Shown here: in pieces, positions 51,605-63,962 of the stretch
Layout of the letters: the number at the start of each line of letters is the position of its first letter
How positions within the stretch are numbered: the stretch's first letter is position 1
IMG/VR virus record: IMGVR_UViG_3300045988_176682
Length of the DNA: 64,000 nt
DNA from: a virus
Reading direction: 5' to 3' (one strand)
Made by a program: the position numbers and the translations under genes
The notes under the pieces: generated by a model
The model's database searches: none
What the model was told of the DNA's origin: nothing
The model's input: only the letters and a program-made list of their open reading frames with translations

Positions 51605-51668
51605 TTGACAATAATCAAGATGAGATATAATGTCTTCTTATGACAATAAGAGTCTTATATTGTCATTT
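51605..51668 (+). promoter_or_regulatory. Promoter-like element (TTGACA-17-TAATGT) plus 9-bp inverted repeat ATGACAATA/TATTGTCAT
   Basis: -35 at 51605-51610. IR arms at 51640-51648 and 51660-51668. Confidence 0.35.
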
Positions 51669-51699
51669 ACCGAAACTTAATAAAAGAAAGGAATTTTTT

Positions 51700-52551
51700 A
51701 TGTCAGAAGTCAATATTAACGATGTCATCTCTCAAGCTCTTGCCAACGGTGAAATAAACTGTCCGGAAGGAGTTAATCCTGCTCAATGGGAAATGGCTAA
51801 GGCTGTTTACTTTAACCAGATTGGTATGTCTGCCCAGGCCGCCTCTGTAGCCGCCCCGCAAGCCGTCCCGGCAGCCTCTGTTCCAGTAGCATCTGTTCCC
51901 GCTACCTTAGGAAACGCTGCTGCTCCTGCTGCATATACCCCGCAAAGTTCTGCTTTCGACCTCGATGCTCCGACCTCTTCTGGTCTGTCTGGTGTAGAAG
52001 GTTATTTGAAATGTAAGCACAGTCAAACAATCGTAGACGATAAGATTGTAACCAATAACTCTTTCATTGCTGAAATTGTTATGGCTAACGTAACCAAAAA
52101 GTTATCTATTCGCGGAGGTTCTGCCGGTAACATTAAATATTTCTCAACAACCGACGGCGTTACGGCTAACGATGGTACTCCTTGGATGACAGCTATCCAG
52201 AACATTCAAAGAATCCAAGCCGATGCCCGTCCTTATACAAGTTACGACATTCCGCTGAAACTGTGTGAAGACTTGGTTAATGTCAGCGTAGTTAATGGTC
52301 AGGCTGCAACCTCAGTAGTAGCTCCGGCAGGGACTGTATTGGGACATACTACGGCTATCACCGGAAGAGCCGGTTTTGAGTCTTTAATCAATGACCTGAA
52401 ACGTGATGGAAAAGTACCGAGTAACGAAATTGTTTATGTCCGCGTTGTCCGTCAAGACAGAAACAAAGGAAGCTTTGCTTGGGCTACTTTTAATTTTGAA
52501 TTGTTGGATGAGAACGAAGCTGCTACTTATGCGGCTAAGATGTCTGCTTAA
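51700..52551 (+). CDS. Hypothetical protein, candidate ssDNA-binding/annealing protein (positional)
   Basis: 283 aa from the internal ATG. Ala/Pro-rich linker. First gene of the replication block. Confidence 0.4.
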   Translation: MSEVNINDVISQALANGEINCPEGVNPAQWEMAKAVYFNQIGMSAQAASVAAPQAVPAASVPVASVPATLGNAAAPAAYTPQSSAFDLDAPTSSGLSGVEGYLKCKHSQTIVDDKIVTNNSFIAEIVMANVTKKLSIRGGSAGNIKYFSTTDGVTANDGTPWMTAIQNIQRIQADARPYTSYDIPLKLCEDLVNVSVVNGQAATSVVAPAGTVLGHTTAITGRAGFESLINDLKRDGKVPSNEIVYVRVVRQDRNKGSFAWATFNFELLDENEAATYAAKMSA

Positions 52552-52651: not shown

Positions 52652-53449
52652 ATGGTTTTAATTTATGATGTTAATAACTGGATAAGAGTTAAACTGTCAA
52701 CCGACGGAGACCAGTTAACCATTAACAATTTCTGGTCTGAGGTTTTATACAACTCTTCTAAAGGAGAGGTTCAAATTTTTGTCTCTGATGGTTTTAATTC
52801 GAGAAAAAAGAGAAAAGAAATCTATCCAGAGTATAAAGCAAAAAGAAAGCCTGCCGATGCCTCTATTTATGATGGTATCAATTTCTTTAAGAACCTTTTG
52901 CGTCATGCTCCAAAAAATGTTTTTTATGTAGAAGTCCCGGAAATGGAAGCAGATGATATTATAGCTCATCTGGTAAGATACCGAAATAATTACTACATTG
53001 GAAAAGATATTCATATTATTTCAACCGATAAAGATTTAACCCAGCTTTTAGTTTATCCCGGAGTAACTACTCTGGCTACTCCTCCGGTAGAACCTAGATT
53101 TGTTAGGCTTTATAAAACTTTAGTTGGGGATAATTCAGACAATATTCCGGGAGTGCCGGGAATAGGGAAGTCTTCTTGGGAGAATATCCCGGAAGAAGTA
53201 AAAAAAGAACTTAATATGATGTTGGCCTCCGGCGGGATGTTGACCGAACATTTGGCAGATGAATTAGAAAAATGTTTCAAGCCAAAGCAACTGGAAAATT
53301 TTTATGAAGCTTATTATAATGGTAGTCTGCACATGTTCTTTAAGATTGTAGATTTTATAGATTATCCATTTAATCCGTCAATATTGAAGACAGGAGACGG
53401 AGACTTAAACTTTGTTAACAAGCAACTGAATGAGTTATTTATATTATGA
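52652..53449 (+). CDS. 5'-3' exonuclease / flap endonuclease (FEN, Pol I N-terminal-like)
   Basis: YPEYKAKRK motif, acidic clusters and H3TH GVPGIGKSSWENI. Start at the internal ATG with RBS AGGAG. Confidence 0.7.
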   Translation: MVLIYDVNNWIRVKLSTDGDQLTINNFWSEVLYNSSKGEVQIFVSDGFNSRKKRKEIYPEYKAKRKPADASIYDGINFFKNLLRHAPKNVFYVEVPEMEADDIIAHLVRYRNNYYIGKDIHIISTDKDLTQLLVYPGVTTLATPPVEPRFVRLYKTLVGDNSDNIPGVPGIGKSSWENIPEEVKKELNMMLASGGMLTEHLADELEKCFKPKQLENFYEAYYNGSLHMFFKIVDFIDYPFNPSILKTGDGDLNFVNKQLNELFIL

Positions 53450-55074
53450 GAAACAATGCTTGGCTTAGTTCTGGAGGAGATGAAGCGAGTGATGAAGTAA
53501 TCACTCCCAGATACGTTGTGGAACCTATTGTCAAATATCTTAAGGCTAAAAATTTTAAGGTTGTTTGGTGTCCGTTTGATACGGTAGTGTCCCAATATGT
53601 TCGCGTTCTTTATAAGGAAGGGTTTGATGTCAGGTTTGGACACCGAGACATAGGGCTTGACTTTTTCAAATATGAATGTCCGGAAGCAGATGTCATTGTT
53701 TCAAATCCGCCGTTCAGTTGTTATAGCGATGATACAGAGGTATTTACTAAAAGAGGATGGATTAGATTTCCGAATATATTACCAACTGATGAGATTTTAT
53801 CCGTAAACAATAAAAAAGAAATTAGTTGGGATAAAATTTCGAGAGTTATAAAAAAAGAGGTTAATGAGGATTTATATCATTTTAAAAATAAAAACATGGA
53901 TTTATTAGTTACCTCTGACCACAGGATGTTTGCCTACAATAAATATTCTAATGAGTTATGTATTGGTAAAGATGGGGATTTATTAAGAGCTTCCGAAATT
54001 GGAAGTAAACACTATTTTCCTAAAAATGGATATACTTGGAAAGGAGAGATTAACAACGATTATTTAGTTCTCCCACATACAAAAAATCCCCCTAGGAGTA
54101 AAGTTAGCTTTTATCCTGAACTAAAGATACCTCTAATTGATTGGCTTCCTTTTTTCGGATTATGGTTGGCTGATGGATTCGTTTCTACATATAAAGGAAC
54201 CGGACATGAATATACTGTGGGGATAAAACAAGGAGAATCTAGATGGAGAGAGGTAGAGAATATCTTAAATAAGTTACCTTTTAAATATTCTAAATATATA
54301 AATAAAATATACCCCAGCGATAGGGAAAGAAAAGCTGACTATGCTATATATCAAAAACAATTATGGGATTATATGAACCAATTTGGTAAATCTCAAAATA
54401 AATTTATTCCTTCTTGGATAAAAAATCTTCCTGTGAGGTATTTAAAGCTTCTTATTTATGGCTATACTTTAGGAGATAGTTTTAGACATAAAGGAATAAA
54501 TTCAATAACTACTTCTATTCATTATGGGTCAGTTTCTAAACAGTTGCTAGAAGATATTCAAGAGATATTATTAAAATTAGGAAATATAACTAATATTTCT
54601 CACCAGATTTTAAATAATGGTAATGATTATTATCGCTTAATCTTGAATAAAGATAGTTGCAGTAACAGAGCTATGTATATACGTAAAAATCCTCAAAATA
54701 AGGAACCCTATAATGGGTTAGTATATTGTTTAACTCTAAAAGAGAATAGTATTTTTTTAGTGAGAAGAAACAATAAAATAATATTTTGCGGTAATTGTAA
54801 AGACCAAGTATTGGAAAGACTTTATAAATTAGATAAACCCTTTATGGTTTTATTTCCTGTTCAAGTATTACAGGGAAAGAAAAGAACCAAGTTGTTTATG
54901 AAATATGGGTTGGAGTATCTTGGATTTGATTCCCGTCCTTGTTTTTATACCAAAAATGACTTATCGTCTATAAAAACGGGAAATCATTTTGCCAGCGGAT
55001 ATTATTGCCGGAATGTTCTTCCGGAGAAATTAATTTTTGAAGAATTAAAATTAATACAGGAGCCTTTTATATGA
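53446..55074 (+). CDS. Small phage Dam-like N6-adenine methyltransferase interrupted by an intein (extein about 186 aa)
   Basis: N-extein ...ITPRYVVEPIV...ADVIVSNPPFS. C-extein CKDQVLERLY...FMVLFPVQ.... The intein lies between them. Confidence 0.55.
   Translation: MRNNAWLSSGGDEASDEVITPRYVVEPIVKYLKAKNFKVVWCPFDTVVSQYVRVLYKEGFDVRFGHRDIGLDFFKYECPEADVIVSNPPFSCYSDDTEVFTKRGWIRFPNILPTDEILSVNNKKEISWDKISRVIKKEVNEDLYHFKNKNMDLLVTSDHRMFAYNKYSNELCIGKDGDLLRASEIGSKHYFPKNGYTWKGEINNDYLVLPHTKNPPRSKVSFYPELKIPLIDWLPFFGLWLADGFVSTYKGTGHEYTVGIKQGESRWREVENILNKLPFKYSKYINKIYPSDRERKADYAIYQKQLWDYMNQFGKSQNKFIPSWIKNLPVRYLKLLIYGYTLGDSFRHKGINSITTSIHYGSVSKQLLEDIQEILLKLGNITNISHQILNNGNDYYRLILNKDSCSNRAMYIRKNPQNKEPYNGLVYCLTLKENSIFLVRRNNKIIFCGNCKDQVLERLYKLDKPFMVLFPVQVLQGKKRTKLFMKYGLEYLGFDSRPCFYTKNDLSSIKTGNHFASGYYCRNVLPEKLIFEELKLIQEPFI
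53719..54795 (+). mobile_element. Intein (359 aa) with LAGLIDADG homing endonuclease domain
   Basis: Block A CYSDDTEVFTKRGW. Block B TSDH. LAGLIDADG motifs GLWLADGF and LIYGYTLGDSF. Blocks F/G VYCLTLKENSIFLV...IIFCGN followed by +1 Cys. Confidence 0.75.
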
Positions 55075-55382
55075 CAAAATTCAACTGTGGTCTATTTGAT
55101 ATGGTAGGAAATTGGCAGCATGGAGAAATAATTGAGGGAACTTATCGAACCAGAGATGCCGCTTCAAAATATCTCGGAACAAATCGAGATAAGATTATTG
55201 ACCAAAGATACCTTTGTGTGGTTACGGATAATAAAAATTCAATCGCAGTTTATTTGGTAACCCCTAAAAATATCTTTAATCAAAAAAGTTTGATTGAAGT
55301 TAAACTTGCCGAGGGATTAAGGGGAGATTTAGTAGATGTACTTGTTGATAGCACCCTACACACACCAAAGCTCTCTGGTTAA
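55071..55382 (+). CDS. Hypothetical protein
   Basis: 103-aa ORF, ATGA-coupled. Confidence 0.5.
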   Translation: MTKFNCGLFDMVGNWQHGEIIEGTYRTRDAASKYLGTNRDKIIDQRYLCVVTDNKNSIAVYLVTPKNIFNQKSLIEVKLAEGLRGDLVDVLVDSTLHTPKLSG

Positions 55383-55686
55383 AAAGGCCAGAGCCCGAGC
55401 CACTTTAGATGTAGCCAACAGCCTTGGTACAGAGGTTATGGCTCCCTCTCTTTATGCCCACCTAATCGGCGAAACCGGAGAGACTTTTAATCTTCATGCG
55501 TTAACTTTTTCTCTGCTTAGAAATGTTAACGGAGTTATTGCTTATAAACTTCCCGGCTATCAAATTGACGAGGAATTTAAGAAAACCATAGAGGCTGCTG
55601 TAGCTCTTGATATACCCGTACAAATGATGGACCCTTATCCGTCTCATTTACAGGGTAATTATGCAGACGTTTGGCAGTCTCTTTAA
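55336..55686 (+). CDS. Hypothetical protein (possible nucleoside 2-deoxyribosyltransferase-like fold; weak)
   Basis: 116-aa ORF immediately upstream of the DNA polymerase gene. Confidence 0.4.
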   Translation: MYLLIAPYTHQSSLVKKARARATLDVANSLGTEVMAPSLYAHLIGETGETFNLHALTFSLLRNVNGVIAYKLPGYQIDEEFKKTIEAAVALDIPVQMMDPYPSHLQGNYADVWQSL

Positions 55687-58424: not shown

Positions 58425-61136
58425 ATGCAAACTCTACTTCCTTCTGGCCCTGTTAAATCACAGTACACCGGAGACGGTACTAAAACCGTATTCGAGTTTA
58501 ATGTAGATATTACGGACAATTCTGTTATCCGAGTCTATTTGAACAACGTCGAAAGTTCTTCCGGATGGACTTACAGTGAAGAAGGAAAGTCTGTTACTTT
58601 CACCACCGCCCCTGCTGCCGGGACCAGTATCGTTATAATGCGATACGCCCCGGCAGCTTATACTGAAAGCATTACCGACAAAGGTATAATTTCCCCGGAA
58701 ACTTTAGATAATATGGCTGTCGAGCTGACGGCTCAGATTCAGACTCTGGAAGAGAAACTGTCTCGGGCTCCGGTATTTCCTGTCGATACCGACAGAACCG
58801 GAGAAGAGATATATAATGACTTCAAACAAATGGAAAGTTCCACGGTTTCTGCCGCGGCAGAAAGCACCGCTGCGGTACAAGATGTTAAGGAATTAAGGGA
58901 TGAATCTCTTAATAGCCTTAATACCGCTGTTGAGACCGCCAAACAAACTATCGGAAGTTATACTAACAACATGGTCGGCACCGTTGAAGACGCTACTGCC
59001 GGCTATATTAACCAAGCCAAAACTTGGGCTACCGGAGAGATTGATGAGGTAGCCGAAATCCAACCGGGAGAACGGTCATCTCGAGGTTATGCTGATGTTT
59101 CTGCGGCTTATGCCAGTACTCCGGAAGATGTTCCGATTGAGGACAGCGATATATTGGCCTTGGAAATATTTAAAGGAGATAAGGGTGACCCAGGAAATGA
59201 CGGTCTCCCTGGAGGAGGCTGGGAACTTTTTGACCATAAGTCTTCTGACCACCTCATTAACAACTATGGCTGGGTTCGTTCTAATCTTCAATGGTGTTAT
59301 GGCTCTATGTATCAGAGCGGTTATAATCACCTTATAGAGACCTCTGATGCGATTGCTTATACTAAAAAATATTATCAAGTTAATAACGGGTCTGTTAAGT
59401 ATTTAATTAATTATACTAAGACCCAGTTACAGGCTTTAGTAGATGATATAAGAGTATCTGAAAAAGAGAAAGTAGTTGCCTTATATACTTATCAGAATAA
59501 CTCGGGTCCTCTTCCGGTAGTTTATCAATATAATAAAGCAAGAGATATTCTTAATGATGCCAATTTTACATGGCCTAACGGAAGCACAGAAACTTTTACC
59601 AGAAGTACAAAATATTCCGAAATAAGCTATCTGGACCGGTACAAGGACGGGTATAATTTTACCAATCAAAAGGCTATGATAAAAAGGAACGGTTGGACAA
59701 GGTTTGGTACTACCAGTATCATAACCTTACCGATAGGGGTACCACAAGCAACCGGTACTAATGATAACTGGACTTTCTTTACCCATTTCAAAACCGGGTC
59801 TAATATTAGTGCCAGACAGGTTATCTTAAATATGCAATATAACGGAACCGCAGATTATGGGCTTATTTTAGATATTTATTCCTCAAAAATTAACATATAT
59901 GTTTCAAGCGACGGAACTTCATGGGATGTTATCAGTAACGTATCAGGTACCACTACTTTAACAATTAATACTGAATATTACCTGAAATTAGAAAGATATT
60001 ATGTAGCCAGGGGTAATGCCGGCTATCGGGTTTACTTGTCTCGGGATGGGGTTACTTGGTCTACTGAGATAAATCAAGTAAAAGATGCTGGTATCTTGGC
60101 CGGTAATAAGCCCGGTACTGTTGTTATTGGTAATAAGACCTCAGATATGGCTAGATATTTCAGAGGATATATTGATTTAAGCGAGAGCAGGTTTGAACAT
60201 AAACTTCCCCAATATAACTGGGAACCCTATCATTGGGTGGATATTAATTATTACCGAAATTCCGAGGGAAGAAAAATTTGCTCATCCGGACAAGAGGATA
60301 ATCTTCGTAAAGTTATCCAATTAAGCGGACAGGCATGGTATTATATTCTCGACCGAAGTAATGAGAGATTTAAACTCCCTTATTCCGAAAACTTCGAACG
60401 GTTTGGTACTAAAAATATCGGAAATTACCAGGAAGATATGTCTCAGGATTTTGCTGTATTTTGGGAAGGTTCAGATGATAATTATACTAGGTATCCTGAT
60501 ATGATAAACCTTTCCGGAAATATTATTTTCCCGGAAAGGAATTATGCCGGTATAGATGAATTTGGACCTTATACCAGTAATGAGGCTACCACTTGGGACC
60601 GTCTCGAAGGCAGGATGTCTAATAAGTATAATGCCGGAGACCAGGTATCTCCTCGAGCAACTTTATTTTATCTCTATTTCTATCTTGGAGAAGTTGCTGC
60701 TTCTTCGGCCAGTGTTGACCTGAACGGATTAAGTGAAACTGTTGCTGATAAAATGGATAATGATTTCGGGAACGCAACCATAGGGTTCGACCCGGTAATT
60801 GATTATTATCCTAAGACAGATGCCGAGAAAACAGCTGAATCCAATGCCGGAACTTACAGATGGTGGAGAAAATACAGGAGTGGTTGGATTGAACAGGGAG
60901 GATTTATTGATACTGTATCAGAAAACTCTACGGCTACGATTGAGTTTTTAAAAAATTTCAATAATAAAAAATACTTTGTCTCTTTATTGGAAGTAAAAAA
61001 CAAAGATACTTCAAACAACGGCTCAACTAACGCGAACGCTATTTCTCAACAAGATACATACCGTATGGTTATTATTACCTATTCTTGGGACAATGGTCGT
61101 TTATGGGAAGCAAAAGGATGGGGAGCTGATGAATAA
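58425..61136 (+). CDS. Tail fibre-like protein: T7 gp17-type N-terminal domain, collagen-like segment, LamG/ConA-like domain
   Basis: N-terminal QYTGDGTKTVFEF...VYLNNV...VTF...IVIMR. GDKGDPGNDGLPGGG. YFRGYIDLSE. Confidence 0.55.
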   Translation: MQTLLPSGPVKSQYTGDGTKTVFEFNVDITDNSVIRVYLNNVESSSGWTYSEEGKSVTFTTAPAAGTSIVIMRYAPAAYTESITDKGIISPETLDNMAVELTAQIQTLEEKLSRAPVFPVDTDRTGEEIYNDFKQMESSTVSAAAESTAAVQDVKELRDESLNSLNTAVETAKQTIGSYTNNMVGTVEDATAGYINQAKTWATGEIDEVAEIQPGERSSRGYADVSAAYASTPEDVPIEDSDILALEIFKGDKGDPGNDGLPGGGWELFDHKSSDHLINNYGWVRSNLQWCYGSMYQSGYNHLIETSDAIAYTKKYYQVNNGSVKYLINYTKTQLQALVDDIRVSEKEKVVALYTYQNNSGPLPVVYQYNKARDILNDANFTWPNGSTETFTRSTKYSEISYLDRYKDGYNFTNQKAMIKRNGWTRFGTTSIITLPIGVPQATGTNDNWTFFTHFKTGSNISARQVILNMQYNGTADYGLILDIYSSKINIYVSSDGTSWDVISNVSGTTTLTINTEYYLKLERYYVARGNAGYRVYLSRDGVTWSTEINQVKDAGILAGNKPGTVVIGNKTSDMARYFRGYIDLSESRFEHKLPQYNWEPYHWVDINYYRNSEGRKICSSGQEDNLRKVIQLSGQAWYYILDRSNERFKLPYSENFERFGTKNIGNYQEDMSQDFAVFWEGSDDNYTRYPDMINLSGNIIFPERNYAGIDEFGPYTSNEATTWDRLEGRMSNKYNAGDQVSPRATLFYLYFYLGEVAASSASVDLNGLSETVADKMDNDFGNATIGFDPVIDYYPKTDAEKTAESNAGTYRWWRKYRSGWIEQGGFIDTVSENSTATIEFLKNFNNKKYFVSLLEVKNKDTSNNGSTNANAISQQDTYRMVIITYSWDNGRLWEAKGWGADE

Positions 61137-61768
61137 TGACAGAAGAAATTAGATACAGTGCACTTCACTATGCTGCGAAATCAAAAAGTTCCGCAGATGC
61201 CGCAGCCGCGTCGGCATCTCATTGCGACCAGGTTGCCGCTGACTTCGATGTTAATGCAGCTCAAAAAACTTCAGATTTTGATGCAAACGCGGCTGCCAAG
61301 ACAACAACTTTTAACAATAATGCACAAACCAAGACAAATGAATATAATGCTAACCACAATGATAAGTTAGCCATTATTCAAGGTAAAGTGACCGAGTCCC
61401 AAACTTGGGCAACCCGTTCCGAAAATGCTGCCCATACCACTTTAAGAGATGTTGTCCCTCTTGGAAGCCTCGCTGCGGACAGTACCACTACTTTGGCTGA
61501 AAATAATGTGTATTCTGCTACTATCCCTGCCGCAGGAAATTATAGTTTTGCTCTCAGCATTACCAATACTTCTCCGGCTTATCATGTGCAGATAAAATTA
61601 TTCCTGACAGTTGTCCCGTCAGCGCCGATTATCTCTTGGGGATGTGACAAGTTTTTTAATGGAGCAGAACCCGACATTGAGGCCGGTAACTATGTTATTT
61701 ACTGGGATTACGATAATCTTACCCAGCAATGGGTTTGTGGCGGTATGCCCTATTCTGTAGCCGATTAG
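61136..61768 (+). CDS. Hypothetical protein with Ala/Asn-rich repeats
   Basis: 210-aa ORF, ATGA-coupled to the fibre gene. Confidence 0.5.
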   Translation: MTEEIRYSALHYAAKSKSSADAAAASASHCDQVAADFDVNAAQKTSDFDANAAAKTTTFNNNAQTKTNEYNANHNDKLAIIQGKVTESQTWATRSENAAHTTLRDVVPLGSLAADSTTTLAENNVYSATIPAAGNYSFALSITNTSPAYHVQIKLFLTVVPSAPIISWGCDKFFNGAEPDIEAGNYVIYWDYDNLTQQWVCGGMPYSVAD

Positions 61769-61778
61769 GAGAAAGAAA

Positions 61779-62552
61779 GTGGCTGATGAAAAACTTATAC
61801 GATACAGTCATGACCTTTTAGGAGGAAAAGTTCCGTTCGAGCCGGTTACTTTTGGTGCTGCAGCTTTTTTTCAGGAATGGGAAGTCCCTCCTGGGCACCG
61901 AAAGATAAGAGTAGACATCGTGGGAGGTAAAGGTTACGGTGGAGAATCGGGAAGTTCAGCTCCCTCAGGAGGCTATGGCGGGCGAGTAACATGTGTCTTG
62001 GAAGTAAAGCCAAGACAAAAACTTTATATTTGGGCCGGAAGAGTTCCAACATCCTTAACTGAGGTTTATGATAACTCAGCCCATATTAATACATCAACAT
62101 CTAATTCTAAAGACACTATTTTAGTTATTGCCGGTGGGGGGGGCTCGGTAGGGTCCGGAAATAATGTTACTCCAGGCGGGGCTGGCGGAGGAACTACCGG
62201 AGCCGCAGGTAAAGATGCAGGTTGTTCAGGCGGGGGAAAAGGTGGAACACAAACCGCTGGTGGGGCTGGCGGACAATATATTACTTGGACTTCTCAACAA
62301 GTTGCCGCCGGTTCGGCAGGAACATTTTTAAAGGGAGGAGCTCCCGGAAGTAATCGTGGAGTTGGCGGGGCTGGCGGCGCTGGCTGGTATGGTGGCGGTG
62401 GCGGTGCCGGTGGGTTTACTAAATCAGCCGGAACGTATGGCGGCGGAGGCGGAGGAGGTTCTTCTTATACTCATCCTACACTTTGCAGTGAAGTAACCCA
62501 CTATCAGGGATATAGAAGTTATAGTGGATATGTAAAAATTTCGATGTATTAG
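61779..62552 (+). CDS. Glycine-rich protein (fibre/host-range module paralogue 1); contains a G8 tract
   Basis: Long GGxGGxG runs. N- and C-termini paralogous to 62559..63962. G8 at 62136-62143. Confidence 0.55.
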   Translation: MADEKLIRYSHDLLGGKVPFEPVTFGAAAFFQEWEVPPGHRKIRVDIVGGKGYGGESGSSAPSGGYGGRVTCVLEVKPRQKLYIWAGRVPTSLTEVYDNSAHINTSTSNSKDTILVIAGGGGSVGSGNNVTPGGAGGGTTGAAGKDAGCSGGGKGGTQTAGGAGGQYITWTSQQVAAGSAGTFLKGGAPGSNRGVGGAGGAGWYGGGGGAGGFTKSAGTYGGGGGGGSSYTHPTLCSEVTHYQGYRSYSGYVKISMY

Positions 62553-62558
62553 GAGAAA

Positions 62559-63962
62559 ATGATGACCGAAGAAACAATTCTCGATAAAGCGAAGGGGGGG
62601 GGTGACTGGGACGAACCTCTAATTTATTATAGTTATGAATTATTAGCAGGCAGTTATAGTACTGACCCCATCACTTTCCGACCGGCAAGCAACAATGTTC
62701 CGGTATTATTTAAAGTCCCAGGAGCGTGCAAATATCTAAAGGTAGATTGTGTAGGCGCTACCGGAGGAGGAAATAGCGGCGGCGCTGGTGGACGGGTACA
62801 GTGTATATTAGATGTAAGAGAGAATAAAAGATTATATATCTTTGCCGGGAAATCTCATGGAACTTCTTATGATTCCAGAGTCTATGATGCTTCTCATATT
62901 AGTACATCTTACAGCTATAATGAAGGAAACACGTCGGCTCTTAACCAGAGGTTAGTGGTAGCCGGAGCGGGAGGAAATCGTTATCAAGGTTATGGTGCCG
63001 GTGCCGGAGGAGGTCTGACCGGTGGTACCGCAGCCGGAGATATTATCCATCCCGGTTATGGTGGAACACAAACAGCTGGCGGAGCCCCCTCACATAATAT
63101 TCGAGGGAGTATTCGAGGCACGCCTAATTTCGGAAATGCCGGAGTATTTGGATATGGCGGCTCGGGACCTTATCCGGGCGGGGCTGGCTGGTATGGCGGA
63201 GGTTCGGGAGGTACTTGTTATGTATCTAAAGCTGGTACACAATGGGCCGGCGCTGGTGGAGGTTCCTCTTATACAAAATCAGGCTTATGTAAGGAGGTAG
63301 TCCATACGCAAGGATATAACAAGAACGGTAACGGATGGGTTACGATACAATGTTTGAGGGGGGGGGTAACTATTCCTAATTTCGAGGTTGTTGGTTCTCC
63401 GACGATTGATGAAAATTATAATGTTAGTGGTTTTAGTTTAAATGATTATGTAAAAATAGGCCTAAATAAATCTGTAACTACTAAGAATCTTGAGATACAA
63501 CTTAAGATTACTACACCTAAAACATGGACTATATCTGGTTATGAAGATTTTATAGCATATGCTGGAGATAATTATAAAAAAGGTTTAATAGATATAAATA
63601 TTTATTCAGCGAATAACCCCTATGTTTCAGCAGGTTTTCATACAGATACAGATACTTTTTCTATTAAGGTATTAAAAGTAATAGAATTAAATAAAACTTA
63701 TTGGTTTAAAATTACATATGATGGAAAAATTTTTAGGGGATATAATTCTTTAGATGGTAAAATTTGGAATTTATATGAAGAAAAAATTTATAGTGAAAAC
63801 GAAGAAAAGGATATATCTATCGAAAAACAAACTTATTATGTAGGACTTTGGAATCCAGATAGAGGCACTGATAGAAGTGTTTTCCCTGGAACAATACATT
63901 TATCAGAATCTTATATTAAAGCAAATGGAGAAATTTTATGGGCGAGTACAACAAAGACATAG
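62559..63962 (+). CDS. Glycine-rich protein with C-terminal LamG-like domain (paralogue 2); contains two G9 tracts
   Basis: G9 at 62594-62602 (codon 12-14) and 63358-63366. AT-rich C-terminal domain resembles the LamG-like part of the 903-aa protein. Confidence 0.55.
   Translation: MMTEETILDKAKGGGDWDEPLIYYSYELLAGSYSTDPITFRPASNNVPVLFKVPGACKYLKVDCVGATGGGNSGGAGGRVQCILDVRENKRLYIFAGKSHGTSYDSRVYDASHISTSYSYNEGNTSALNQRLVVAGAGGNRYQGYGAGAGGGLTGGTAAGDIIHPGYGGTQTAGGAPSHNIRGSIRGTPNFGNAGVFGYGGSGPYPGGAGWYGGGSGGTCYVSKAGTQWAGAGGGSSYTKSGLCKEVVHTQGYNKNGNGWVTIQCLRGGVTIPNFEVVGSPTIDENYNVSGFSLNDYVKIGLNKSVTTKNLEIQLKITTPKTWTISGYEDFIAYAGDNYKKGLIDINIYSANNPYVSAGFHTDTDTFSIKVLKVIELNKTYWFKITYDGKIFRGYNSLDGKIWNLYEEKIYSENEEKDISIEKQTYYVGLWNPDRGTDRSVFPGTIHLSESYIKANGEILWASTTKT

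Follow-up and report, generated by a model that had tools for sequence, protein, structure and literature searches.

A LAGLIDADG intein at the catalytic motif of a small phage methyltransferase and a clade of inteins found at the same motif

A 64,000-nucleotide stretch of viral DNA (IMG/VR record IMGVR_UViG_3300045988_176682, referred to here as the window) carries a small methyltransferase gene that is interrupted, one residue after the catalytic motif, by a LAGLIDADG intein. We consider this insert very likely to be a mobile, splicing-competent class 1 intein with a monomeric, double-motif LAGLIDADG homing endonuclease. Its insertion site, catalytic motif IV, is new, as is the type of enzyme that it interrupts, a minimal methyltransferase of the gamma type; inteins in phage methylases as such are already known.

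The interrupted gene is a single open reading frame (ORF) coupled by ATGA overlaps to an upstream 5'-3' exonuclease gene and to a small downstream ORF (Table 1). A preliminary description, made from the sequence without database searches, had proposed an intein in this ORF, and re-reading the sequence bore out the ORF itself, both junctions, and the 359-amino-acid internal segment. The N-terminal junction reads ...ADVIVSNPPFS|CYSDDTEVFTKRGW... and the C-terminal junction reads ...KIIFCGN|CKDQ.... Intein blocks A, B (TSDH), and F/G (LVYCLTL...FCGN), both LAGLIDADG motifs (FFGLWLADGF and LIYGYTLGDSF), and the +1 Cys are all found where that description had put them. The G+C content is 28.8% in the intein, 41.0% in the N-extein, 31.5% in the C-extein, and 38.4% in the window. 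The intein is therefore clearly more AT-rich, as proposed, than the N-extein (0.29 versus 0.41) and than the window as a whole (0.38), whereas its difference from the C-extein (0.32) is slight. In DNA of this composition, stop codons are expected at a frequency of 0.091 per codon (about 1 per 11 codons), and the remaining five frames of the segment contain 20 to 55 stops each. In such AT-rich DNA, a frame open over 359 codons is more than chance would give (P ~1e-15).

Exact in-frame excision of the insert restores a conserved protein. After deletion of positions 53719-54795, the remaining 702 bp align without gaps to an intein-free contig (L003), with 682 of 702 positions identical (97%). This contig encodes a 183-amino-acid protein (P0001) that is 97% identical to the spliced protein and is its best intein-free homolog. 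A collection of 5.8 billion proteins contains 1463 homologs of the spliced extein; the 120 that were listed are all 182 to 232 amino acids long and therefore intein-free. In tblastn searches, the joined exteins match small phage proteins as one colinear segment, in a single piece across the junction. These include proteins of Thermus phages TMA and phiYS40 (~50% identity over amino acids 13-177), cyanophages P-TIM68 and P-SSM2, and Flavobacterium, Streptococcus, Fusobacterium, and Campylobacter phages. The flanks do rejoin into one small protein, as proposed, although the joined exteins amount to 183 amino acids rather than about 186. The preliminary description had named two findings that would count against it, namely, a lack of Hint and LAGLIDADG matches and flank homologs that are not colinear across the junction; the opposite was found in both respects. 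The gene is best annotated as one methyltransferase with an intein, neither as a 542-amino-acid hypothetical protein nor as a homing endonuclease.

Profile matches and the predicted fold likewise bear out the proposal of an intein with a LAGLIDADG endonuclease. The insert matches Pfam LAGLIDADG_3 (PF14528) above the cut-off (E = 1.6e-9). Its NCBIfam matches other than intein_Nterm are to models of intein-containing RpoA'', DnaB, Tes, and GyrA, and its PHROGs matches are confined to intein-bearing ribonucleotide reductase and thymidylate synthase families. We compared an AlphaFold model of the full precursor (mean predicted local distance difference test [pLDDT] score of 88, 110 aligned sequences) with solved endonuclease-bearing inteins by Foldseek. 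TliVMA was the best match (1.5e-15), and PI-SceI, PhoVMA, and PI-PkoII matched at ~1e-12 to 1e-11; the central domain matched the monomeric LAGLIDADG enzymes I-DmoI (about 5e-6) and I-SceI. By both profiles and Foldseek, a Hint fold flanks the endonuclease domain in the predicted precursor. The solved structures (TliVMA, 7qsu; PhoVMA, 7qst; PI-SceI, 1vde; PI-PkoII, 2cw7) have the same arrangement, a Hint domain interrupted by a double-LAGLIDADG endonuclease. These archaeal and yeast VMA and Pol inteins differ from the window intein in sequence (10 to 18% identity) and in their hosts, V-ATPase and DNA polymerase.

Table 1. Coordinates of the interrupted methyltransferase gene and its elements in the window (residue counts refer to the 67 core homologs described in the text)
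Feature	Position	Strand	Details
Precursor gene, methyltransferase interrupted by intein	53446..55074	+	542 codons plus stop
N-extein, amino acids 1-91, ends NPPFS	53446..53718	+	Carries TPR, CPFD, beta4, NPPF-S
TPR	53503-53511	+	Within N-extein
Motif I-like CPFD	53569-53580	+	Within N-extein
Catalytic motif IV, N87-P-P-F90	53704..53715	+	Directly after predicted beta4 (amino acids 83-86)
Intein, amino acids 92-450, Cys1...Gly358-Asn359	53719..54795	+	359 amino acids; 1077 bp; GC 0.288
Intein block A, CYSDDTEVFTKRGW; Cys1 = first nucleophile	53719..53760	+	C1, T6, G13, and W14 invariant in 67 homologs
Intein block B, TSDH (TxxH motif)	53911..53922	+	Thr 64/67, His 67/67
First LAGLIDADG motif, FFGLWLADGF	54151..54180	+	Catalytic Asp = intein residue 152; Asp 67/67
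Second LAGLIDADG motif, LIYGYTLGDSF	54451..54483	+	Catalytic Asp = intein residue 253; Asp 67/67
Intein blocks F and G, LVYCLTLKENSIFLVRRNNKIIFCGN	54718..54795	+	Cys337 67/67, Gly358 65/67, Asn359 67/67
C-extein, amino acids 451-542 (92 amino acids), and stop codon	54796..55074	+	+1 Cys codon 54796-54798

Relatives of the window intein occupy the same motif in other methyltransferases. A search with the intein alone returned 94 protein clusters, and 67 full-length intein homologs (at least 34% identity, after alignment) form our core set. In all 67, the intein follows the catalytic tetrapeptide either at once or after a single residue: one residue separates the motif from the intein after NPPY in 40 cases and after NPPF in 9, while the intein follows immediately after DVPY or DIPY in 11 and after NPPF in 4; the remaining 3 have single tetrapeptide variants. 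The spliced exteins fall into at least five groups (blastp, E < 1e-20). These are the window's own methyltransferase family, a larger YATDP...NPPYK family of ~200 amino acids, a GNPPFG family, an EcoRI-like protein, and PF01555 (N6_N4_Mtase), which spliced protein P0162 matches above the cut-off (1.4e-25). PF01555 enzymes have a permuted order, with motif IV N-terminal to motif I, and two fragments of the clade carry SPPYW, the N4-cytosine form of the motif. A profile search added ~20 clusters; all with a readable junction are at DxPY or NPP(F/Y), and most are PF01555 proteins. Profile scores divide along the same line, with methyltransferase-hosted inteins at 274 bits or more and all others at 269 bits or less. 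The clade comprises ~95 protein clusters, drawn from metagenomic and IMG/VR viral contigs, all inserted 0 to 1 residue after (N/D)xP(Y/F), in at least five methyltransferase families.

More distant relatives leave this site. An independent scan of IMG/VR agrees with the clade's placement: every one of the 13 loci with at least 36% identity is inserted at NPPYx| or DxPY|, on viral contigs of up to 92 kb, and matches below 32% identity sit at unrelated sites. A scan of genome contigs with the single intein protein found no relative. With the intein alignment and one representative genome per species, the best relatives were at most 35% identical and lay in cellular metagenome-assembled genomes (MAGs). 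Judged from their junctions, most of their sites are NrdD-like (GGGLFG...TG|SIGVVT), PurD-like (GPN|TGGMG), ThyX-like (SR..|(S/T)HE.VRHR), and methyltransferase motif I (DPFxG|SGT), with one at SPPYW on a Saccharibacteria-binned contig (L061). Among GenBank phages, the nearest relative, at 27.7% identity, is in Prevotella megaphage Lak-A1 (L006, MK250016.1); the locus (733-2820) is an unannotated 695-amino-acid ORF with the intein at ...IKEKFG|...|SLRWYSEG and no methyltransferase motif at the junction.

The DNA around the insertion differs between methyltransferase families; the endonucleases must therefore, we infer, have diverged in specificity while keeping to the same motif. The clade appears not to have been described before and numbers about 100 inteins, all of which target one catalytic motif. 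The literature that we searched contained no title or abstract linking inteins to NPPY, DPPY, or NPPF and no mention of motif IV of amino-methyltransferases as an intein site; subscription journals were outside its coverage, so this is an absence of evidence only. The clade adds an insertion site to intein biology, catalytic motif IV of amino-methyltransferases. Because one lineage occupies this site in several families, one of them permuted, it offers a clean natural example of homing endonucleases that keep to a brief catalytic motif, conserved universally, and not to any one gene family.

Three observations on related inteins stand beside these results. Inteins ~26 to 32% identical to that of the window interrupt the SAM-binding motif I of methyltransferases (DPFxG|SGT...) on contigs from Hadesarchaea (L025), an uncultured archaeon (L029), and Patescibacteria (L053), so that two amino-methyltransferase motifs carry inteins of the wider family. 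On L007 (4001-6818), the PF01555 methyltransferase with its intein (P0162) is followed by a slightly overlapping, intein-free PF01555 methyltransferase gene. An NrdD-like gene with a related intein on L033 (CAZFNU010000002.1, 2100-4350), from a MAG binned as Candidatus Saccharibacteria, has TGA in frame eight times between the beginning of the intein and the C-extein, and a ninth time farther upstream. Several of these codons fall at Trp positions conserved in the clade (GW of block A, the W before the first LAGLIDADG motif, and the W before CGN), which suggests that TGA encodes Trp on this contig. The NrdD-like gene also has another insert with a LAGLIDADG domain, upstream of the first.

Residues required for splicing and for DNA cleavage are conserved throughout the core set, at identities down to 36%. 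Cys1, the block B His, the Cys at block F position 4, the terminal Asn, and the Asp of each LAGLIDADG motif are present in 67 of 67; the block B Thr and the block D Lys are present in 64 each and the penultimate Gly in 65. The +1 residue is Cys in 58, Thr in 5, and Ser in 4. Inteins that are active in splicing as well as in homing would be expected to show such conservation. The window intein has the N-terminal Cys, TxxH, C-terminal Asn, and +1 Cys of a class 1 intein. Block F has Cys at position 4 and no His, and the penultimate His and block F Asp/His, which are common in class 1 but not obligatory, are replaced by Gly358, Cys337, and Ser344. Together, the conserved Cys1, block F Cys, and Gly-Asn ending provide a defined residue set for tests of splicing chemistry.

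A further line of evidence comes from alleles with and without the intein. The sibling contig L005 is 98.2% identical to the window over 11.4 kb and carries the intein (99.3% identical), so near-identical filled (L005) and empty (L003) alleles both exist. The 20 mismatches between the window and L003 are unevenly placed: none is in the first 300 bp, 15 lie between positions -97 and +17 of the junction, and 9 fall within the first 18 nucleotides downstream of it (binomial P ~6e-10). The intein-free junction DNA of the window allele is ...AATCCGCCGTTCAGT|TGTAAAGACCAAGTA..., compared with TTCAGT|TATAAGGATTTAATC in L003; at the protein level, NPPFS|CKDQVL of the filled allele corresponds to NPPFS-YKDLIL of the empty one. 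Such a pile-up at the junction is the pattern expected of homing with co-conversion of the flanks. Because the mismatches cluster there, L003 may also be a poor target for the endonuclease, and the Tyr at its +1 position could not support splicing. In the 120 closest intein-free homologs, the residue aligned to window amino acid 451 varies (Ile in 30, Leu in 26, Cys in ~29, and Lys in 17). A Cys at this position is found in the intein-free homologs nearest to filled alleles (P0002-P0007); these may bear the trace of an intein that was once there, or they may be preadapted to receiving one. The near-identical filled and empty alleles are a ready-made substrate pair for homing tests.

The interrupted protein is probably a minimal gamma-type amino-methyltransferase with adenine specificity. 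An AlphaFold model of the spliced 183-amino-acid protein (pLDDT 91.7, 49 sequences) shows the strand/helix alternation of a Rossmann-type fold, in which strand beta4 (amino acids 83-86) leads at once into N87-P-P-F90. In amino-methyltransferases, catalytic motif IV canonically sits directly after strand beta4. N87 and P89 are invariant in 49 homologs. The model points to a class I S-adenosylmethionine (SAM) methyltransferase fold with motif I before motif IV, the order of the gamma class, and its best structural matches are adenine-N6 methyltransferases: DIMT1/KsgA, type I M subunits of PacII (M1M2), ZCCHC4, HsdM, Erm, and M.BseCI. The motif I position reads CPFD and is without the glycine-rich Gly-x-Gly loop. 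PHROG 799, "DNA methyltransferase," matches the spliced extein colinearly across the junction (4e-26). Of 49 family members, 29 match PF13651 (EcoRI_methylase), 17 match PF07669 (Eco57I), and 2 match PF02384 (N6_Mtase) at E <= 0.01. These are also the nearest Pfam profiles of the window extein, all below their cut-offs (for PF13651, 23.5 bits against 26.4). A profile search against PDB chains gave only a marginal match around NPPF (7vru, E = 0.22). The preliminary description had likened the host to phage Dam (PF05869), which we reject: PF05869 matches neither the spliced extein at E <= 1 nor any of the 49 family members at E <= 0.01.

The PHROG 799 phage proteins (Thermus TMA/phiYS40, Prochlorococcus P-SSM2/P-TIM68, and Campylobacter CP81) share the TPR...CPFD...NPPF layout of the window extein and are 30 to 50% identical to it, colinear over amino acids 13-177; unlike the window gene, none of these GenBank phage records carries the intein. 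Their labels conflict, naming a DNA methyltransferase, a sugar-phosphate nucleotidyltransferase, or a tRNA adenine methyltransferase, and no biochemical characterization of PHROG 799 methyltransferases turned up in the literature searched. "Sugar-phosphate nucleotidyltransferase" is the GenBank label for Thermus TMA, phiYS40, and YS40_Isch and for Campylobacter DA10 and Los1 (several records), while RefSeq copies read "DNA methyltransferase"; the fold and NPPF suggest that the nucleotidyltransferase label is mistaken.

Several points weigh against reading the insert as an active intein in an adenine methyltransferase. Pfam Intein_splicing matches below its curated cut-off (9e-6), and NCBIfam intein_Nterm TIGR01445 matches just under its own (1.4e-4). 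The clade is without three residues common in class 1, with Cys for the block F Asp, Ser or Gly for the block F His, and Gly for the penultimate His, and for this reason splicing may be slow, conditional, or by a variant route. A recent gain explains the clustering of mismatches at the junction no better than two alternatives do, namely, that the intein was lost when the gene recombined with a diverged empty allele or that the target resists the endonuclease. Foldseek template modeling scores for the spliced model are only ~0.5, with rRNA adenine methylases as the top matches, and the methyltransferase may act on either DNA or RNA. Splicing, cleavage by the endonuclease, and methyl transfer are deductions from sequence and predicted structure. 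The unusual residues and the subthreshold splicing profiles could also mark a decaying or immobile remnant that is in frame but splices poorly and/or has a dead endonuclease, with the methyltransferase inactivated or living on residual splicing; the window intein is likewise more diverged from that of P0123 (62% identity) than is its extein (74% amino-acid identity). We nonetheless find a remnant very unlikely. The unusual residues are clade-wide rather than sporadic (block F Cys in 67 of 67, Gly358 in 65); the catalytic splicing residues, the LAGLIDADG Asp residues, and the block D Lys (64 of 67) are kept down to 36% identity; and the 359-codon frame is open in DNA of 29% GC. The preliminary description had correctly noted the penultimate Gly in place of His, but it is not a defect. 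Kelley et al. (2016; PMC5050341) found the penultimate His to be poorly conserved in mycobacteriophage inteins and showed that a phage intein with a penultimate Gly splices completely, whereas a Gly-to-His change slows it; they argue that this residue tunes the splicing rate of phage inteins. With these results and the same ending in the intein of mycobacteriophage Bobi, we regard the unusual residues as characteristic rather than degenerate and as not unique to the clade. The intein is genuine and most likely active.

Could the same residues instead serve a conditional switch, in which Cys1, the block F Cys, and the +1 Cys form disulfides or a class 3-like branched thioester, and redox state or infection timing gates splicing and hence phage DNA methylation? 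The invariant Cys at block F position 4 alongside Cys1 would suit such a switch, as would the absence of both histidines that normally aid Asn cyclization and an insertion one residue past the catalytic motif, which should leave the precursor without activity. According to Tori et al. (2010; PMC2807308), standard inteins usually have Asp at block F position 4, whereas class 3 inteins have Cys there; a penultimate residue that tunes the splicing rate would fit a switch as well. We judge a switch highly improbable: parasitic inteins generally insert at catalytic motifs, the Bobi methylase intein shares the VWC...TGN signature, and the invariant Cys1 fits an ordinary class 1 start. Membership in class 3 itself was rejected, since Cys1 is invariant, B:12 is Met in 64 of 67 rather than Trp, and G:5 is Ser in 39, Cys in 26, and Thr in only 2. 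The class 3 prototype, the mycobacteriophage Bethlehem DnaB intein, is phage associated and has the block F position 4 Cys, as in the window clade; class 3 inteins differ in having no N-terminal nucleophile and a full Trp-Cys-Thr triplet, where the clade has Cys1, Met, and Ser or Cys (PMC2807308). The invariant block F Cys and Cys1, in the absence of both assisting histidines, lead us to entertain a broader and still unlikely idea, that the clade is a viral intein lineage tracking (N/D)PP(Y/F) across unrelated or permuted families that splices by nonstandard chemistry (a class 1/class 3 hybrid or a redox-gated switch) and so times the appearance of active methyltransferase. That the insert is no intein at all has next to no probability; it would then be a group I or II intron whose ORF encodes a LAGLIDADG enzyme, or else a free-standing endonuclease gene joined to its neighbors by an error of sequencing or assembly. 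In favor of this, introns are where LAGLIDADG endonucleases most often occur, and actinophage methylases can have a LAGLIDADG insertion that is not an intein (Gosselin et al. 2023; PMC9957025). The window insert, however, is in frame with both exteins, starts with Cys, ends with Asn followed by Cys, and has Hint blocks A, B, F, and G, with the Hint fold flanking the endonuclease. Moreover, ~95 independent clusters show this architecture, as does a separately assembled contig that is 98% identical, and an Rfam search found no family, and hence no recognized intron, anywhere in the window.

Taking the insert as an active class 1 intein, the gene would be translated as a 542-amino-acid precursor in which the 359-amino-acid intein separates the SAM-binding half (beta1 to beta4, ending NPPF-S) from the C-terminal half, with the predicted insertion point where a loop meets a helix, just past the catalytic motif. 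A protein split at that point is presumably inactive as a precursor. From the conserved residues, splicing would begin with an N-S acyl shift at Cys92; the +1 Cys451 would then take over the N-extein, and Asn450 would cyclize, yielding NPPFS-CKDQ joined in a 183-amino-acid enzyme and the free intein. During coinfection, the free intein or the precursor may cut intein-free alleles at the motif IV DNA, and repair from the filled copy would bring in the intein with some flanking sequence. Such homing is suggested by the clustered mismatches, by the existence of an empty allele, and by endonuclease residues that never vary. For phage biology, the intein might, speculatively, alter when DNA becomes methylated and, through this, how the phage escapes host restriction. 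In sequence and predicted structure, the window element appears to work like a textbook intein/homing endonuclease system, agreeing with it on the points that can be tested.

The preliminary description had called an intein in a phage methylase unusual, and here earlier work says otherwise. Kelley et al. listed 11 mycobacteriophage DNA methylase inteins, DNMT-1 (7) and DNMT-2 (4), in N6_N4_Mtase proteins of cluster E and F mycobacteriophages (PMC5050341), and Gosselin et al. described a LAGLIDADG intein in 21 actinophage methylases, inserted each time at the same conserved position (PMC9957025). These, too, are class 1 LAGLIDADG inteins that occur sporadically in conserved regions of phage amino-methyltransferase genes, and the Bobi gp73 intein has Cys1 and a block F/G signature (VWC...RRNGK...TGN) like that of the window clade. 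Both the host family and the insertion site differ. The earlier host enzymes are PF01555 beta-class proteins of 350 to 850 amino acids, compared with 183 amino acids for the gamma-type window host. We compared sites through one example per Kelley group: the Bobi gp73 site (...DSIAWLYG|...|SGFPKS) lies ~60 residues after DPPY and the Brocalys gp61 site (...VQMHV|...|CPLQFD) just before motif I, neither of them at motif IV. Membership in the DNMT-1 or DNMT-2 alleles was accordingly rejected, as the window extein is not a PF01555 protein and the Bobi and Brocalys junctions (WLYG| and MHV|CPLQ) are different. Nor are these inteins closely related to that of the window: its listed tblastn matches in GenBank phages, of which the best is the 27.7% identical match given above, include no actinophage methylase.

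The window phage is uncultured and siphovirus-like. Terminase, portal, major head, tape-measure, and tail genes occupy the minus strand from 1 to 29.6 kb; the plus strand encodes a primase-helicase, a helicase, the 5'-3' exonuclease, the intein-bearing methyltransferase, and a family A DNA polymerase (PolA). This polymerase is ~37% identical to PolA of Caulobacter phage Seuss, Achromobacter phage JWF, and several Acinetobacter phages. Megablast of positions 53000-55400 against GenBank phages returned no match, and a tRNA scan of the window found no tRNA. The gene order of exonuclease, methyltransferase with intein, two small ORFs, and PolA is shared with contigs L004 and L005. L004, a MAG contig more distant than L005 (~70% nucleotide identity), carries an intein at the position seen in the window (62% identical; extein, 74%).

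Two neighboring regions deserve mention. Just upstream of the exonuclease gene, a 303-amino-acid ORF (51640-52551, plus strand) without a Pfam or PHROG match holds an Ala/Pro/Ser-rich stretch with a GC content of 0.50 to 0.57, especially at 51700-52000. Three ORFs (58425-63962, plus strand) follow directly after PolA, far from the structural module on the minus strand; one, of 903 amino acids, has a weak match to the T7 tail-fiber N-terminal domain, and two carry glycine-rich PF12810 domains (61779-62552 and 62559-63962).

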